A stretch of 64,000 bases of DNA from Gammaproteobacteria bacterium (GCA_004213955.1 SGZL01000002.1:10982-74981), one strand, 5' to 3'. Counted from the stretch's first letter, positions 2,796 to 57,821 are shown. Translations and numbers: made by a program. The notes: generated from the letters alone by a model not told the origin.

Positions 2796-3278
2796 ATGCC
2801 ATCTTTCGATATTGAATCCAAAGTTGATTTTCATGAATTAACGAACGCTGTAGATCAATCAAATAGAGTTATTTCAAATAGATTTGATTTTAAAGATGCT
2901 AATGCTGTCTATGAAATAAAAGAAAATAAACTAGCTTTAATAGCTAATGAAGTTTTTCAATTGGATCAAATGATACCAATTTTGAAAGAAAATTTAGCTA
3001 AACGTTCTATAGATTTAAAAGCTTTGAAATTTGGAGAGAAAACATCTAATAATAATAAGGCTTATTTAGATGCGGAAATAGTCCAAGGGGTGGATCAGGA
3101 AATTTCAAAAAAAATTATTAGAGTTGTGAAAGATTCAAAAATAAAAGTTCAAAGTTCCATTCAAGGTGAAAGTATTAGAGTTTCAGGAAAAAAGCGAGAT
3201 CAATTACAAGAAATCATCAGTTTAATAAAGAAGCAAGAATTGGAGATCCCCCTTCAGTTTGTTAATTTTAGAGATTAA
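2796..3278 (+). CDS. yajQ: YajQ-family nucleotide-binding protein (UPF0234)
   Basis: 160 aa. MPSFDI...VD..EL.NAV.Q start and the length are typical of YajQ. Confidence 0.88.
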   Translation: MPSFDIESKVDFHELTNAVDQSNRVISNRFDFKDANAVYEIKENKLALIANEVFQLDQMIPILKENLAKRSIDLKALKFGEKTSNNNKAYLDAEIVQGVDQEISKKIIRVVKDSKIKVQSSIQGESIRVSGKKRDQLQEIISLIKKQELEIPLQFVNFRD

Positions 3279-3280
3279 TA

Positions 3281-4561
3281 ATGTCTTGGCTCTTTTCTAT
3301 CAGGAGTTACTTTCAAACCAGAATTTTACTAATATCGGCTCTAGGAGTTTTATCAGGACTGCCTTTAGGGTTATTAATTGATCCTCTTAGGTATTGGCTA
3401 TCTGAAATCGGTATAGAAAAATCTACTATAGGCTTGCTCTCTTTAGTAATGCTTTCTTACTCTTTAAAGATGTTTTGGGCTCCTTTAGTTGATCGTTTAA
3501 GGATCCCATTTTTATATAAAATTGGACAAAGAAAAAGTTGGCTTATACTTTCACAGTTATTTACTTTTTTATGTATTCTAATTGTAGGTTTTTTAGATCC
3601 TTCGCAAGAACTCAATATATTTATCTTATTTGTTTTAGCACTAAGTTTTTTTTCTGCAACTCAAGACATCTGTGTAGATGCAATTAGAATAGAATTGGTT
3701 GATAAGAAATCAATTGGTGAAGCATCTGCTGTTTACATTATTGGTTACAGACTTGGAGCTATATTTTTATCTCAAGTTATTACATTTTATATAGCCGATT
3801 CCTATGGATGGGACATTGCTTATTTTAGCATTGGCATAATTTTTATTATTTCTTCATTCATTTTAATAATGTTGCTGCCAGAGCCTCATCGAGCAGAAAA
3901 ACCATATTTGTCAATCCTAAAGAAACCAGGTTTATGGTTTAAAGATTCATTTATATTGCCATTAACTGATCTAGTCTCCAGATATAAACAGCATTTACTC
4001 CTTCTACTGTTTTTAACTTTTACATACAGACTTAGTGACATGTTCTTAGGACCAATGGCAATGCCTTTCTATCAAGAAATAGGTTTTTCAAAAATTGAAG
4101 TTGCTCAAATTACAAATTTTTATGGCATGTGGATGACAATACTAGGAGGGCTTTTTGCGGGTTTGACTCTTCATAGGTATGGACTTGTCAGAAATATGAT
4201 TGCAGGAGCAATATTTGTGCCGTTGGCAAATATCCCTTTTATTTTTCTTAATATTTTAGGTAAAGATATAAATTTTTTAATTCTGACTATTACAATCGAC
4301 AACTTCTCTCAAGGTTTTATCTCGGTTGTAGGAATAACTTTTTTATCAAATTTAGTCTCAAAAACATATACCGCAACTCAATACGCTCTACTTTTTGGCT
4401 TAGTTGTTATTCCCCCAAATATTATTTCAAGTGGATCAGGCTTTGTTGTTGAGGCATACGGATTTCAAAACTTTTTTATATTATGTGCTTTATTAGGTTT
4501 ACCGGCGATAATTTTATCGCTAATGGTTTGGAGAAAAAGATCGATTTTTGGTTTTGATTAA
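3281..4561 (+). CDS. ampG: AmpG-family muropeptide permease (MFS)
   Basis: 426 aa polytopic membrane protein. GLPLGL and FWAPLVDR motifs are characteristic of AmpG. It is clustered with ampD. Confidence 0.85.
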   Translation: MSWLFSIRSYFQTRILLISALGVLSGLPLGLLIDPLRYWLSEIGIEKSTIGLLSLVMLSYSLKMFWAPLVDRLRIPFLYKIGQRKSWLILSQLFTFLCILIVGFLDPSQELNIFILFVLALSFFSATQDICVDAIRIELVDKKSIGEASAVYIIGYRLGAIFLSQVITFYIADSYGWDIAYFSIGIIFIISSFILIMLLPEPHRAEKPYLSILKKPGLWFKDSFILPLTDLVSRYKQHLLLLLFLTFTYRLSDMFLGPMAMPFYQEIGFSKIEVAQITNFYGMWMTILGGLFAGLTLHRYGLVRNMIAGAIFVPLANIPFIFLNILGKDINFLILTITIDNFSQGFISVVGITFLSNLVSKTYTATQYALLFGLVVIPPNIISSGSGFVVEAYGFQNFFILCALLGLPAIILSLMVWRKRSIFGFD

Positions 4562-41834: not shown

Positions 41835-42496
41835 ATATAAATTTTGGAAACTTAGAGAAAAAATTAGGCTATTCATTCCAAAAAAAAGAAGTTTTAGTAA
41901 AAGCGTTAACTCATGTGAGTAAATCTAAAGTAAATAATGAAGTTTTTGAATTTTTAGGCGATTCAGTTTTAAATCTCATTATTTCTCAAATACTTGTTGA
42001 AAAATTTTCAACGGATGATGAAGGAACTTTGAGTTTAATGAGATCAAAGTTAGTTAGCAGAACAACGCTTAATAGAATTGCAAAAGAGCTAGAACTGGAT
42101 AGTTTCATTATCAAGGGCGATTCATTTAGAGGTCAAAAAACTCCTGATAATATCTTGGGAAATACACTAGAAGCGCTGTTTGGAGCTATTTTTAAGGAGA
42201 GTGGTTTAGAGTTTTTAGAGAATATAATTTTGAACCTTTTTGTTCAAGACATTGATTTGCTAGGCTCTGAAAGTTTAAAAAATAGTAAGACCCTTTTGCA
42301 AGAATATTGCCAAAAAAATAGGTTTAGTTTGCCCACCTATGATCAAATTCAGAAGAAAGAATATATAAATTCCTTTGTTGTCATGTGTAAATTAGATGAA
42401 AGCAATAACTGTTTAGGGTTTGGAAAAAGTTTAAAAATTGCGGAACAGGATGCTGCGTCAAGATTACTGAAACAAATAGGCTTCAAAGATGAATAA
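41831..42496 (+). CDS. rnc: Ribonuclease III
   Basis: ERLEFLGD-type signature present as FEFLGDSVLN, with a C-terminal dsRBD. Start set at ATG 41831 ([14 protein letters not shown]), an ATGA overlap with the lepB stop. The tracked 41771 start lies inside lepB. Confidence 0.92.
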   Translation: MNINFGNLEKKLGYSFQKKEVLVKALTHVSKSKVNNEVFEFLGDSVLNLIISQILVEKFSTDDEGTLSLMRSKLVSRTTLNRIAKELELDSFIIKGDSFRGQKTPDNILGNTLEALFGAIFKESGLEFLENIILNLFVQDIDLLGSESLKNSKTLLQEYCQKNRFSLPTYDQIQKKEYINSFVVMCKLDESNNCLGFGKSLKIAEQDAASRLLKQIGFKDE

Positions 42497-43373
42497 AAAA
42501 TTTGGATTTGTTTCTTTAACCGGCAGAACAAATGTTGGCAAATCAACTTTATTAAATTCTATTTTTCAAAAGAAAATTGCTATTACTTCTCGAAAACCTC
42601 AAACCACGAGAAATCGAATTTTAGGTATATTTACAGAGTCAAACAATCAAATAGTTTTTTTAGATTCACCAGGAGTTCATTCAGGACATAGAAGAGCATT
42701 AAATAAATATATGAATAAAGTAGCTAGAACTTGTTACGAAGAAGTAGATTTAGTTATTTTTGTAATTGATAGAGGGCGATGGCAAAAAGAAGAAGAAAAT
42801 ATTTTAAAAAATTTAAAAGAATTAGATAAGCCAATAATTTTAGTAATTAATAAAATTGACAGGTTGAAAAATTCCAATGGAATTTTACCAATTATGAACG
42901 ATTTAAGTTCAAAACATAATTTCGAAGCCATTATTCCAATTTCTGCGCTAAGAAAAAATAATTTAGAAGATCTATTATCAAAAGTTGTTGATAGTATTCC
43001 TTCTGGTGAATTTCATTATCCAACAATAGACGAAAAAGAGTTCTCTCAATCTTTTTACATATCAGAAATAATAAGGGAAAAAGCTATAAATAGATTAGGA
43101 GACGAATTGCCTTATCGAATAAATGTTGAGATAGAAAAAATTCAAGATAATAAATTTATTAAGCATATTTTTTCTAATATTTATGTTGAATCATCAAGTC
43201 AAAAAGCAATCCTTTTAGGTAAGAATGGATCGATGATTAAATCCATAGGCACTTCATCAAGAAAGGAGCTGGAAAAAGAATTAGATTCCAAAATTAATTT
43301 ACAACTTAGGGTAAGAGTTAAAAAAAATTGGACTAATGATGTCAATCTTTTATCCAAATATGGATACAAATAG
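42489..43373 (+). CDS. era: GTPase Era
   Basis: 294 aa. GRTNVGKST, DSPG and NKID motifs, plus a C-terminal KH domain. Confidence 0.95.
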   Translation: MNKKFGFVSLTGRTNVGKSTLLNSIFQKKIAITSRKPQTTRNRILGIFTESNNQIVFLDSPGVHSGHRRALNKYMNKVARTCYEEVDLVIFVIDRGRWQKEEENILKNLKELDKPIILVINKIDRLKNSNGILPIMNDLSSKHNFEAIIPISALRKNNLEDLLSKVVDSIPSGEFHYPTIDEKEFSQSFYISEIIREKAINRLGDELPYRINVEIEKIQDNKFIKHIFSNIYVESSSQKAILLGKNGSMIKSIGTSSRKELEKELDSKINLQLRVRVKKNWTNDVNLLSKYGYK

Positions 43374-43423
43374 GTATTGCCTTTCTTCTAGAAATGTTCT
43401 AATATTGCACAGTAATCGTTCAT

Positions 43424-43448
43424 CTTTTGCACTATATAAATGCAAAAG
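43424..43448 (+). promoter_or_regulatory. Palindrome CTTTTGCA-N9-TGCAAAAG enclosing a TATATAAA -10-like element (candidate operator/promoter of the small-protein cassette)
   Basis: An 8-bp perfect inverted repeat flanks CTATATAAA. No convincing -35 at 17 bp, so promoter assignment is tentative. Confidence 0.3.
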
Positions 43449-43611
43449 ACGGAAGTAGGAAGATAGGAAAACCTCTTTCTTCTATAGAGGAGAAAGGTTA
43501 GCAAGTACCCAAAGTGGGAACGAGACCGAATATCTAACGAAGGAACGCGTGGAGAAGGGTGTACGTCGGGAGATGTATGTACGAAATCGAAACGAAAACT
43601 GGAGGCACGAT
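43449..43611 (+). promoter_or_regulatory. Purine-rich, GGA-dense 5' leader (possible CsrA/RsmA-binding leader or sRNA moiety)
   Basis: Nine GGA triplets between 43451 and 43603, the last inside the SD GGAGG (43601-43605). A 12-bp imperfect hairpin at 43471-43498 (ACCTCTTTCTTC-TATA-GAGGAGAAAGGT). G+C is locally higher than the surroundings. Confidence 0.4.
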
Positions 43612-43776
43612 ATGGCTACTTACTATAGAGGCGTTAAAGTGAACTCTGAAGACTCTAACTCTGAAGCTCAAACTTCAAAAGCTGGAATTTACAGAGGCAT
43701 TAAACACGACGCAATCCAAAACAATAAGTCAGCAAAAAATCCTGGGATTTATCGCGGGACCAAAACAGCTGCATAA
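43612..43776 (+). CDS. 54-aa basic microprotein with three YRG repeats (DUF4278-like by motif recollection)
   Basis: MATYYRGVKV...GIYRGIKHD...GIYRGTKTAA: [YI]YRG[VIT]K occurs three times, about 20 aa apart. Strong SD GGAGG lies 6 nt upstream of ATG 43612, and the ORF is followed by its own terminator. The tracked GTG 43549 start (75 aa) lacks an SD. Confidence 0.6.
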   Translation: MATYYRGVKVNSEDSNSEAQTSKAGIYRGIKHDAIQNNKSAKNPGIYRGTKTAA

Positions 43777-43798
43777 CTTTGTTTTAAGTTAAAAATTA

Positions 43799-43827
43799 GG
43801 GGGGCTTAACAGCCTCCCTTTTTTTTT
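43799..43827 (+). terminator. Rho-independent terminator of the microprotein cassette
   Basis: GGGGGGCT-TAAC-AGCCTCCC (one G-U pair) followed by a 9-T run. Confidence 0.8.
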
Positions 43828-43848
43828 GATAAATTACATAAAAAAATT

Positions 43849-44565
43849 TTGAAACAATCACGTTTTTCATGCAAAGCTGTATTACTGCACTCTACTAACT
43901 TTAGAGAGTCAAGTTTGATAGGAACTTTTTTCACAGATGAATACGGTTTAATTAAGTTAGTAGCCAAAGGCGCTAAATCTAAAAAAAATAAATTATCCAA
44001 CATTAAGGTTCCTGGAGCGATATTTGAAATTAATTTTGGCGGAAAAGGAGATTTAAAAAATCTTTATACTTGCGAAATTATTGATTCAATCATAATAGAA
44101 GAATCTAATTTAAAGATTTATTTGTATTTGAACGAAATAATAATAAGGACCATAGAACCTGAAGCTCCAGTTCAATCAATATTTAGAAGTCTACTTAATT
44201 TGTTAAAAGATCTTGAGATGACTGACAATCTTTTAGAGAGAGAACTTAAATTAAGAAGGTTCGAGCTAGATCTTATTTCGGAGCTAGGTTATGAAATTAG
44301 TTTAACCCTCGATAGTAGAGGAGAAAAAATTAAAGAAGACCTAATGTATGAATTTATTCCAAGTAAGGGTTTTCAAGAAGCAAAAAAAGATAGCTCAAAA
44401 GAAGCGATTCTAGGAAGTTCGATATTACAATTTGACGGAGGAGTTTTTGCAAGTGATCAATCAAAAAAATATATAAAATATATAATGAAATCTTCATTAG
44501 ATACGATATCATCAAAACCTTTAAATTCTTCAAAATTTTTTAGATTAAAAAAAGATGCAAATTAA
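43849..44565 (+). CDS. recO: DNA repair protein RecO
   Basis: 238 aa. AVLLHSTNFRESSLIGTFFTDEYGLIKLVAKGAKS parallels the E. coli RecO N-terminus (AFVLHSRPWSETS...RLVAKGARS). TTG start, with no in-frame ATG nearby. Confidence 0.85.
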   Translation: MKQSRFSCKAVLLHSTNFRESSLIGTFFTDEYGLIKLVAKGAKSKKNKLSNIKVPGAIFEINFGGKGDLKNLYTCEIIDSIIIEESNLKIYLYLNEIIIRTIEPEAPVQSIFRSLLNLLKDLEMTDNLLERELKLRRFELDLISELGYEISLTLDSRGEKIKEDLMYEFIPSKGFQEAKKDSSKEAILGSSILQFDGGVFASDQSKKYIKYIMKSSLDTISSKPLNSSKFFRLKKDAN

Positions 44566-55988: not shown

Positions 55989-56063
55989 GTCCCCTTCGTC
56001 TAGCGGTTAGGACACCGGGTTTTCATCTCGGCAACAGGGGTTCGATCCCCCTAGGGGACGCCA
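55989..56063 (+). tRNA. tRNA-Glu (anticodon UUC), CCA encoded
   Basis: Acceptor GTCCCCT/AGGGGAC, anticodon stem CCGGG/CTCGG with loop TTTTCAT, and T-arm AGGGG-TTCGATC-CCCCT. Confidence 0.93.
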
Positions 56064-56205: not shown

Positions 56206-56222
56206 TGAATGCTCAGCATTCA
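56206..56222. promoter_or_regulatory. 17-bp perfect palindrome upstream of glnK (candidate operator or 5'-UTR hairpin)
   Basis: TGAATGC-TCA-GCATTCA, ending 10 nt upstream of the glnK ATG (56233). No TGGCAC-N5-TTGC sigma-54 element was found in the 175-bp upstream gap. Confidence 0.3.
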
Positions 56223-56232
56223 TCAAAGATTT

Positions 56233-56583
56233 ATGAAACTTATGTCAATTGTTGTGAAACCATCCAAAGTCGAAGCTGTCAAAAGCGCGATTTCATCAGT
56301 AGGTGTTAGCGGAGCTACTATCTTGGATGCTAGAGGATTTGGATCAACAAAGGGGCACACAGACTCTTATAGGGGAGCTCAATATCAAGTGGATACTAAT
56401 CCAAAAGCTATGTTGCAGGTCGCGTGTAAGGACGAGAGTGTTAATGACATTGTAGAAGCGGTTCGTAGTGTGGCTAATACCAACACTATTGGTGATGGAA
56501 AAATTTTTATCACAGAACTTTTAGATGTAATACGTATCAGAACCGGTGAAACTGGTGAAGGTGCGATAAACGGAGAATATTAA
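56233..56583 (+). CDS. glnK: Nitrogen regulatory protein P-II (GlnK)
   Basis: 116 aa from ATG 56233 (MKLMSIVVKP aligns with MKKIEAIIKP). T-loop GFGSTKGHTDSYRGAQY retains the uridylylatable Tyr. IGDGKIFI and IRIRTGE blocks. Overlaps amtB (TAATG). Confidence 0.9.
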   Translation: MKLMSIVVKPSKVEAVKSAISSVGVSGATILDARGFGSTKGHTDSYRGAQYQVDTNPKAMLQVACKDESVNDIVEAVRSVANTNTIGDGKIFITELLDVIRIRTGETGEGAINGEY

Positions 56584-57821
56584 TGGAAGAAATTAAATTT
56601 TCATTAGACACATTCTATGCTCTTATGTCAGGAGCACTAGTTATGTGGATGGCAGCTGGTTTCACTATGTTGGAAGCTGGCTTAGTTCAGAAGAAGGATG
56701 TCTCTGAGATTGTTACTAAGAATTTAGGATTGTATTCAATCGCATGTGTCATGTATTTGGCATGTGGATTTATTCTTATGTATCCAGGATCAGCTTTAAT
56801 AGACGGAATTCTTCCTGGAATAGGAACTTCTTGGTGGTTGTCTACTGCAGACCCAATAGAGGAAATCGGAATTCCTTACGGAATGGATTACTCACAACAA
56901 GCTGATTTCTTTTTCCAAGTAGTTTTTGTTGCGACAGCTATGTCAATTGTTTCAGGAGCAGTTGCAGGTAGAATGAAACTACTTCCTTTTTACTTATTTG
57001 CTATTATCCTTACTGCCTTCATTTACCCAATTCAAGGTTACTGGAACTGGGGTGGAGGTTTCTTAAGCTCAGGTGGTTATTCTGACTACGCTGGATCAGG
57101 TACAGTACATTTATGTGGTGCTGCTGCAGCTTTAGCTGTTGTTACAGTCCTAGGTCCAAGAAAAGGCAAATACAATGCAGATGGTTCTGTTAACCCTATG
57201 CCTGGATCAAACATTCCTTTAGCAGCTTTAGGAGCTTGGATACTTTGGTTAGGTTGGTTTGGTTTTAATGGTGGTTCAGAGCTTGTTGTAAGTTCAGAAG
57301 CCAGTGCTATTGCTGTCAGTCAAGTGTTCTTGAACACAAATATGGCTGCTGCAGGTGGAGTTATAGCTGCATTATTAACAAGTTTATTTGCAACTGGAAA
57401 AATGGACGTCACCATGGCTATAAATGGTGCAATTGCCGGTTTAGTTGCAATTACTGCTGGTCCAAGTGCTCCAACAGGTGGTGAAGCCGTATTTATAGGA
57501 GCCGCTGGTGGTGTCTTGGTCTACTTCTCAATCCTTTTCTTTGATAAAAGCATGAAAGTAGATGACCCAGTTGGCGCTATTTCTGCCCACGGAACAGTTG
57601 GTATTTTAGGTGTAATGGTCGTTCCATTTACTTCTGATGCTTCATTCCTCTGGCAGTTATATGGAGTTCTTGCTATCGGTGGATTCACTTATATAGCGAG
57701 CTTAATAGTTACATTTATTATTAATATAATTATGCCAATCAGAGCAACTGACGAAGAGCAAGACGCAGGTCTTGATTCTACAGAAGTTGGGGTAGCAGCT
57801 TACCCAGAATTCTCAGATTAA
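56583..57821 (+). CDS. amtB: Ammonium transporter AmtB
   Basis: 412 aa with about 11 TM segments. DYAGSGTVHL and GAISAHGTVGILG contain the twin-His pore residues. Confidence 0.95.
   Translation: MEEIKFSLDTFYALMSGALVMWMAAGFTMLEAGLVQKKDVSEIVTKNLGLYSIACVMYLACGFILMYPGSALIDGILPGIGTSWWLSTADPIEEIGIPYGMDYSQQADFFFQVVFVATAMSIVSGAVAGRMKLLPFYLFAIILTAFIYPIQGYWNWGGGFLSSGGYSDYAGSGTVHLCGAAAALAVVTVLGPRKGKYNADGSVNPMPGSNIPLAALGAWILWLGWFGFNGGSELVVSSEASAIAVSQVFLNTNMAAAGGVIAALLTSLFATGKMDVTMAINGAIAGLVAITAGPSAPTGGEAVFIGAAGGVLVYFSILFFDKSMKVDDPVGAISAHGTVGILGVMVVPFTSDASFLWQLYGVLAIGGFTYIASLIVTFIINIIMPIRATDEEQDAGLDSTEVGVAAYPEFSD

Follow-up and report, generated by a model that had tools for sequence, protein, structure and literature searches.

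The 64,000-nucleotide stretch analysed here (the window) comes from a SAR86 genome and carries a 475-bp spacer between era and recO (positions 43374–43848). This spacer very probably holds a type-1 glutamine riboswitch, elaborated by a three-way junction in its P3 helix and by a P4/P5 expression platform, which controls the synthesis of a DUF4278 microprotein; it would work as an ON switch and serve a nitrogen-related target. The leader can be identified as a glutamine riboswitch aptamer, and the open reading frame (ORF) as a DUF4278 gene, with high confidence from their matches to the Rfam and Pfam models; the ON logic and the nitrogen-related target we infer by analogy with characterized relatives. 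The system is of a known kind, with a host, SAR86, that had previously been mentioned only in passing.

When the region was scanned against all Rfam families, the sole match above threshold was RF01739, the type-1 glutamine riboswitch (glnA RNA motif). The elements of the aptamer are as follows.

43415–43551, plus strand: RF01739 aptamer (42.2 bits against a gathering score of 35, E = 1.5e-7, model positions 1–53 of 53)
43417–43421 with 43543–43547, plus strand: P1
43424–43448, plus strand: P2, with arms CTTTTGCA (43424–43431) and TGCAAAAG (43441–43448)
43449–43458 and 43538–43548, plus strand: aptamer core strands, ACGGAAGUAG and CGAAGGAACGC, respectively

All strongly conserved positions of the consensus are matched, with the joining strands CGUUCA, ACGGAAGUAG and CGAAGGAACGC unchanged, and in an alignment of 31 sequences P1 is invariant and P2 and the closing helix of P3 covary. 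The covariance model spans a 79-nt insertion in place of the consensus 8-nt loop of P3. In a study of this family, the ligand-bound type-1 aptamer is described as containing a long-range G-C pair (G23-C60), and structural work as revealing a large glutamine-induced reorientation of P3 (PMC6212724). A G within ACGGAAGUAG and C 43548, just 3' of P1, are both present and invariant, and are presumably, by analogy, the equivalents of G23 and C60 in the solved structure. RNAalifold also proposed that the core CGG pairs with the CCG of GAGACCG, but all three pairs are invariant and are uninformative either way. An earlier reading of the DNA, made from the sequence alone, had pointed to a palindrome at 43424–43448; both of its arms are there, but the palindrome, which encloses TATATAAA, is the aptamer stem P2 and not a promoter element.

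The aptamer precedes a short ORF with its own expression signals.

43377–43405, plus strand: candidate sigma-70 promoter, read from the sequence (-35 TTGCCT at 43377–43382, 17-nt spacer, -10 TAATAT at 43400–43405)
43601–43605, plus strand: Shine-Dalgarno (SD) sequence GGAGG, 6 nt 5' of ATG 43612, invariant in 7/7 SAR86 copies
43612–43776, plus strand: 3xYRG microprotein ORF (54 aa, basic, isoelectric point 9.8), with YRG at residues 5–7, 27–29 and 47–49
43798–43827, plus strand: intrinsic terminator from the terminator scan (stem 43798–43819 of 9 bp, 6 of them G-C, 4-nt loop, T8)

Residues 1–50 of the deduced protein align with positions 1–55 of the 57 positions of PF14105 (DUF4278), scoring 26.4 bits against a gathering threshold of 25.3, which bears out the family that the sequence-only reading had named for a basic 54-aa ORF with three YRG repeats. 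Since the ratios of nonsynonymous to synonymous substitution rates (dN/dS) against six orthologues are 0.22–0.44, and the three indels found across the orthologues are all multiples of 3, the ORF is under purifying selection and appears to be translated. There are 26 close homologues of the microprotein, and a profile search of 1.84 billion representatives gave 88 clusters at 50% identity, nearly all of 50–57 aa; the 88 family representatives range from 42 to 103 aa, mostly 50–57 aa, and none approaches the length of IF17. The 3xYRG microproteins form a compact family of about 54 aa and are not fragments of IF17. Searches of NCBIfam gave no match and those of PHROGs only families of unknown function. 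A 75-aa version starting from GTG 43549 (public protein P0001) was rejected, as this GTG is GTT in the six sister loci L001–L006 and the phage platforms are closed in that frame; its DUF4278 score (25.0) lies under the cut-off.

The host was assigned to SAR86, as proteins from single-cell genomes of this group share 94% identity with its Era. The cassette occupies exactly the same era-recO site in the six closest GTDB species (Era at least 79% identical; L001–L006), whereas in 15 more distant SAR86 and gammaproteobacterial loci era and recO overlap or lie a few bases apart and have no cassette; at this site it is limited to one SAR86 sub-clade. Its G+C fraction is 0.41–0.45, compared with 0.23–0.31 in the flanks. 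Within the clade the leader is 92–95% identical, against 75–89% for era DNA and 69–84% for recO DNA; the cassette is more strongly constrained than its essential neighbours. The candidate promoter matches only 8 of 12 consensus positions and lies under the scan threshold of 9, but the -35 TTG and the -10 hexamer (TAATAT; TAGAAT in L005) are kept throughout the 7 SAR86 copies amid variable sequence, and a cassette at another site in a related genome (L029) has TTGAAA-N17-TAGAAT at the corresponding place. Transcription is predicted to start at about 43411–43413, 2–4 nt 5' of the aptamer. The terminator is near-invariant across the 7 SAR86 copies, and an equivalent one follows the L029 copy. Since the -10 and the -35 TTG are conserved amid drifting sequence and the terminator is almost unchanged, the insert is an autonomous transcription unit, comprising a candidate promoter, a 5' untranslated region (UTR) of about 200 nt, the gene for the 54-aa DUF4278 microprotein and its own terminator. 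The terminator scan found none between the aptamer and the ORF, consistent with control at the level of translation.

Much of what the sequence-only reading had described at this locus was upheld, each physical feature lying at the stated coordinates or 1–3 nt from them: i) a 475-bp insert of higher G+C content, on which coordinates, base composition and the 15 abutting or overlapping relatives agree, ii) its self-contained nature, seen in its conservation in six relatives and in its promoter-like site and terminator, iii) a small ORF, the frame of which is intact across the six sister species, iv) an SD GGAGG, containing the last GGA of the leader, 6 nt before ATG 43612, and v) a clean intrinsic terminator followed by T8, with a stem that begins at 43798 rather than 43799.

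The 79-nt insertion in P3 has a structure of its own, with the following parts.

43459–43537, plus strand: three-way junction (3WJ) module of 79 nt replacing the P3 loop
43461–43465 with 43531–43535, plus strand: 3WJ closing helix
43467–43473, plus strand: junction strand GAAAACC
43474–43497, plus strand: hairpin H1
43498–43507, plus strand: junction UUAGCAAGUA
43508–43518, plus strand: hairpin H2
43518–43529, plus strand: junction GAACGAGACCGA

In 31 non-identical sequences, the 60–81 nt between the core strands fold as a three-way junction made of the closing helix, H1 and H2, with invariant joining strands, namely GAAAACC(U), (N)NAGC(U)AAGUA and GAAC(A)GAGACCGA. Covariation was assessed on a MAFFT alignment of these 31 sequences (A2) with a structure that we specified, the alignment itself not being fitted to it. 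Standard pairs occupied 91.9% of the cells, compared with 40–50% when the partners were slid by 1–3 columns, changes on both sides were seen in 15 of 23 pairs, and the covariation score of 0.391 (against at most 0.13) was reached by none of 500 shuffles. The leader hairpin that had been placed at 43471–43498 is real. H1 of the window shows a block of differences from all six sisters L001–L006 in the surroundings of its loop (CUUCUAUAGAGGAG vs CUUCCCAAGGGAGG); both versions fold as a 9-bp stem, and the block explains much of the 5–8% leader divergence.

An Rfam search with the 3WJ module alone, or with the platform described below alone, matched no family. A metagenome search with the junction motif alone gave 15 copies with the full junction signature among the 120 matches listed, and these are the same 15 that are flanked by both glutamine core strands; the other 105 are chance matches on high-G+C contigs, the pattern being too loose. 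Among the matches listed, the 3WJ was therefore found only inside glutamine aptamers. It is not a constant part of them. L029 has a simple P3 loop (GAGAUAAUUAUUUAUCU), with the same promoter, P2, P3 closing helix, platform, ORF and terminator, and since this otherwise homologous leader does without the 3WJ, the module is dispensable. Given the ligand-induced movement of P3 in the solved structure, it is plausible that the elaborated helix amplifies this movement or reads it out. Both the P3 3WJ and the P4/P5 platform are apparently undescribed in the literature found, and neither has an Rfam match of its own.

Between P1 and the SD sequence lies the second addition to the aptamer.

43548–43594, plus strand: P4/P5 expression platform, about 50 nt
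43548–43553 with 43587–43594, plus strand: P4, its 5' strand beginning at the C directly 3' of P1
43560–43579, plus strand: P5, with a GGGA loop

The platform runs from the 5' strand of P4 through the purine strand GAGAAGGG and P5 to GUACGAAAUCGA, with the consensus GAGAAGGGUGUA, hairpin, UGUACGAAAUCGA, NNN and GAAAACUGGAGG, and is common to SAR86 copies, L029-type copies and many copies in T4-like phages. When 11 diverse leaders were analyzed by RNAalifold (A3), P5 showed 2–4 compensatory changes per inner pair and P4 two compensatory pairs, although folding of the single leader sequence was not distinctive (z = -1.6). Three further pairings were considered and rejected: 1) GAGAAGGG with the 5' strand of H1, which is broken in the phage copies L075 and L088, L029 keeping the platform without H1; 2) GAGAAGGG with the 5' strand of P2, as the invariant GAGAAGGG shows no changes that compensate for those in P2; and 3) the 3WJ CCUC as a general anti-SD sequence, as L029 has no 3WJ. 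The platform would take part in switching.

In cyanobacteria the pairing of glutamine riboswitches with DUF4278 genes, and their ON behaviour, have been shown experimentally: the glnA aptamer lies upstream of a DUF4278 gene in 25 of 28 aptamer-carrying genomes, and glutamine binding turns expression on in Synechocystis gifB and in Prochlorococcus PMM1846 (PMC6212724; PMC6316151). In the Synechocystis model, the equivalent C and the bases that follow pair with the ribosome-binding site, and glutamine draws the C into the long-range pair, melting the helix (PMC6212724). By analogy with these two genes, glutamine binding would turn translation of the SAR86 microprotein on: in the bound aptamer C 43548 would be recruited to the long-range G-C pair, P4 would open, the RNA 6 nt 5' of the SD would be remodelled, and the microprotein would be made under high cellular glutamine. 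Since the partner within the platform here is not the SD, the ON polarity, in which our confidence is moderate, and the mechanism of P4 opening rest on analogy.

The microprotein would then act on nitrogen assimilation by protein-protein contact. Its likely target is either glutamine synthetase (GS), as in the case of IF17, or GlnK/AmtB, whose genes lie at a distance of 12.6 kb. Our confidence in GS itself is low. GS binding by IF17 needs arginines and K102 that lie in its C-terminal, IF7-homologous moiety (PMC6316151); as such a moiety is missing from the SAR86 protein, GS inhibition does not follow from homology. IF7 has three essential arginines, and the likeness of the three invariant arginines of the YRG motifs to these may be taken as a lead only.

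Several observations weigh against the reading of the cassette as an ON riboswitch for a DUF4278 regulator of nitrogen assimilation. On the protein side, i) the DUF4278 score exceeds the Pfam cut-off by a margin of only 1 bit, ii) the DUF4278 profile, which represents the N-terminal part of IF17, covers the entire 54-aa protein, leaving no IF7-like C-terminal moiety, iii) the AlphaFold2 model has a pLDDT (predicted local distance difference test score) of 56 and no secondary structure, and iv) OM43, the host of a riboswitch-bearing phage, was reported to have no glnA (PMC9004378), so the target need not be GS, which speaks against GS as a universal target. On the RNA side, P4 ends 6 nt 5' of the SD and leaves it uncovered, no conserved anti-SD was found among the leader pairings, and the accessibility of the SD in thermodynamic folds is inconsistent among homologues. 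The low-confidence model, together with the absence of any relative of the microprotein in a PDB sequence search, would fit a peptide that folds on its partner, but is no proof of it.

The cassette occurs at four or more distinct chromosomal sites in related genomes, and at two of these it lies directly beside amtB. In L029 and L030 the order is tRNA-Glu, glnK, amtB and then the cassette in convergent orientation, and the L029 tRNA-Glu is 100% identical to that of the window. In L178, glnK, amtB and the cassette follow one another on a single strand; at positions 2845–4036 of this locus amtB appears as two overlapping ORFs (214 and 194 aa), owing to a frameshift or an assembly error. In L239 the cassette adjoins secDF. 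The window has the corresponding genes downstream of its cassette, at the distance given above, and no cassette follows amtB there.

55989–56063: tRNA-Glu
56209–56583: glnK (P-II)
56583–57821: amtB

Copies were also found in phages. Contigs L027 and L028 encode a lysozyme, a weak match to T4 spanin, MazG, HSP20 and ribosomal protein S21, and L127 is a verified phage, with terL, portal, major head protein and NifU-like genes. L127 (2500–2860) shares two identical stretches with the SAR86 copy, of 17 nt (GAAGATAGGAAAACCTC) and 30 nt (GAAAACTGGAGGCACGATATGGCTACTTAC), a likeness that hints at recent exchange, in either direction, between SAR86 and one of its phages. An exact-pattern scan of IMG/VR, for which all counts refer to the matches listed, found the expanded-P3 (3WJ) form in 53 of 120 matches, followed by a 3xYRG ORF in at least 38 of the 53. 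Tandem glutamine aptamers were present in 66 of the 120 (L036, L037, L043–L049, L055–L057 and others), and in 47 of these 66 they were followed, 17–26 nt on, by a member of a different family of about 50 aa, MTKYQ..RAVKK..LPxYITDNPFYP, which had no match in NCBIfam or PHROGs. A few members of the MTKYQ family carry one IYRG motif. Of 119 phage copies, 49 have the T4-type late-promoter motif TATAAATA no more than 110 nt 5' of the aptamer, often 8–12 nt before P1 (e.g. L052, L053, L059, L075 and L088), which suggests that T4-like marine phages express the microprotein as a late gene. The isolate-phage collection, searched with the peptide, the leader DNA, a phage leader and the MTKYQ protein, gave no match.

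These data can also be read in another way, which we consider unlikely although it is the strongest of the alternatives: that the cassette is a mobile, phage-derived "moron" with a real riboswitch, in which the target of the microprotein is unrelated to GS or nitrogen assimilation and glutamine serves as a general nutritional cue. The microprotein would then have a function, for example, in translation, on nucleic acids or in phage defence. The abundance of the 3WJ form among the IMG/VR matches, including a verified phage, the late-promoter motif upstream of so many phage copies and the four different chromosomal sites fit such an origin, as do the report of RF01739 within deletion variants of SAR86 populations in a 2025 long-read study (PMC12379486), the absence of the GS-binding part of IF17 and the OM43 host without glnA. 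Against it, the cassette directly adjoins amtB/glnK at two of its four independent insertion sites in cells, the only experimentally characterized relatives act in GS control, and the ligand is itself the product of GS.

A different polarity is less probable still. If the riboswitch were an OFF switch, glutamine would repress translation and it would be nitrogen-limited cells that make the microprotein. The P4/P5 platform is unlike that of Synechocystis, so polarity is not simply transferable, and several of the predicted ensembles show the SD paired with the invariant 3WJ CCUC (probability 0.3–0.76), a pairing that the ligand might stabilise and not release. However, both glutamine riboswitches that have been tested, one of type 1 and one of type 2, act as ON switches for a DUF4278 gene downstream, and L029 has the same platform and SD but no 3WJ, so that the CCUC-SD pairing is not general.

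The sequence-only reading had taken the leader for a CsrA/RsmA-repressed one, or for a Csr/Rsm sponge RNA with a small ORF, because of nine GGA triplets. The count itself is correct: 9 GGAs lie in 43440–43612 (173 nt), against 2.5 expected from the window-wide rate (3.5x), and only 0.4% of 173-nt windows attain this number. Its significance did not hold, as shuffles of the region's own purine-rich composition gave a mean of 5.9 (P = 0.08), and the excess is therefore largely compositional. The triplets at 43451, 43458 and 43542 belong to the invariant core strands ACGGAAGUAG and CGAAGGAACGC (43458 straddling the 3' edge of the core); three others are in the covarying P3 domain, two in the platform (43551, in single-stranded GAGAAGGG, and 43569) and one in the SD. 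Like CsrA-binding leaders and the CsrB and RsmZ sponges, the RNA is rich in purines and in GGA triplets, one of which lies in the SD, but it does not have the regular GGA-in-loop hairpin repeats of those RNAs, 43569, in the P5 GGGA loop, being the single GGA in a hairpin loop. No Csr/Rsm family came near threshold in the Rfam scan; the best covariance model, PrrB_RsmZ, reached 15.7 bits against 44, on the terminator only. A tblastn search with E. coli CsrA found nothing credible within the 64-kb window, a span uninformative for the whole genome. Since the GGAs are accounted for by the aptamer core and by helices and junctions of a covarying structure, and the same leader stands in phages before the same ORF family, regulation by CsrA is very improbable here.

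The genes around the cassette were identified by Pfam as lepB, rnc, era, recO, acpS, adk, a tsaB-like gene and uppP.

42489–43373: era (Pfam MMR_HSR1 and KH_2)
43849–44565: recO, with a TTG start (Pfam RecO_N/RecO_C)
from 44555: acpS, overlapped by the end of recO at 44565

The gene pdxJ is absent, as had been noted from the sequence. A promoter-like site, TTAACA-18-TAAATT with an upstream TG (43806–43835), overlaps the cassette terminator just before recO. As the inserted terminator separates recO-acpS-adk from era, these genes may need this site or read-through of the terminator.

The closest characterized system is gifB, which encodes IF17 in Synechocystis sp. PCC 6803 (Klaehn et al. 2018, PMC6212724). 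Both have an aptamer of the RF01739 family with the same core and P1/P2/P3 layout, placed in the 5' UTR of a DUF4278-containing gene, with no intervening terminator and with translational control as the likely mode. They differ in that i) the host here is the heterotrophic gammaproteobacterium SAR86 and not a cyanobacterium, ii) P3 here contains the 79-nt 3WJ and the conserved P4/P5 platform leaves the SD uncovered, and iii) the protein here has 54 aa and is without the C-terminal GS-binding moiety of IF17. The cassette also resembles PMM1846/Yfr6 of Prochlorococcus MED4, where a short, basic protein consisting of DUF4278 only is likewise controlled by a glutamine riboswitch in a streamlined marine genome. 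PMM1846, with a protein of about 7 kDa, has a type-2 riboswitch (Downstream-peptide motif, RF01704), in which a pseudoknot includes the ribosome-binding site, whereas the Rfam scan of the present region gave no RF01704 match and the SAR86 protein has a regular 3xYRG layout.

RF01739 riboswitches have also been reported in the OM43 myophage Melnitz, in Pelagibacter phage Mosig and in metagenome-assembled genomes of pelagimyophages (Buchholz et al. 2022, PMC9004378), and L027, L028, L127 and others are of the same general kind, i.e. marine phages of streamlined heterotrophs with RF01739. In that work the phage glutamine riboswitch was assigned to the control of a two-piece transfer-messenger RNA (tmRNA) (PMC9004378). 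In every phage locus examined here, by contrast, the aptamer lies directly 5' of an ORF of about 50 aa (3xYRG or MTKYQ..NPFYP), and the tmRNA assignment may be worth re-examination.

According to the 2018 study, glutamine riboswitches are confined to cyanobacteria and to unassigned sequences from marine metagenomes (PMC6212724), and these riboswitches, like the control of GS by small proteins, have hitherto been treated as a cyanobacterial speciality. A bolder proposal goes beyond the identification made here: that the 3WJ and P4/P5 define an undescribed riboswitch subclass of SAR86 and marine phages, and that the 3xYRG protein is a glutamine-induced regulator of nitrogen assimilation that phages deploy late. 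We regard this as speculative, and the whole of it as somewhat unlikely. If the subclass is real, an added RNA domain, perhaps a docking element or a second sensor, would read out the swing that the ligand induces in P3; if the 3xYRG protein regulates GS, GlnK or AmtB, heterotrophs would possess a layer of control resembling the inactivating factors, so far thought unique to cyanobacteria; and its use by phages would amount to manipulation of host nitrogen flow late in infection. The L029-type leaders, which have no 3WJ, and the SAR86-type leaders offer riboswitch biochemists a natural pair to compare, and the 3xYRG family, at about 54 aa, provides a tractable peptide for binding assays and for the function of DUF4278-only proteins. 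A full riboswitch-microprotein module is now assigned to SAR86, among the most abundant heterotrophs of the surface ocean, and this module moves among chromosomal sites, including those beside the ammonium transporter gene, and occurs in phage genomes.

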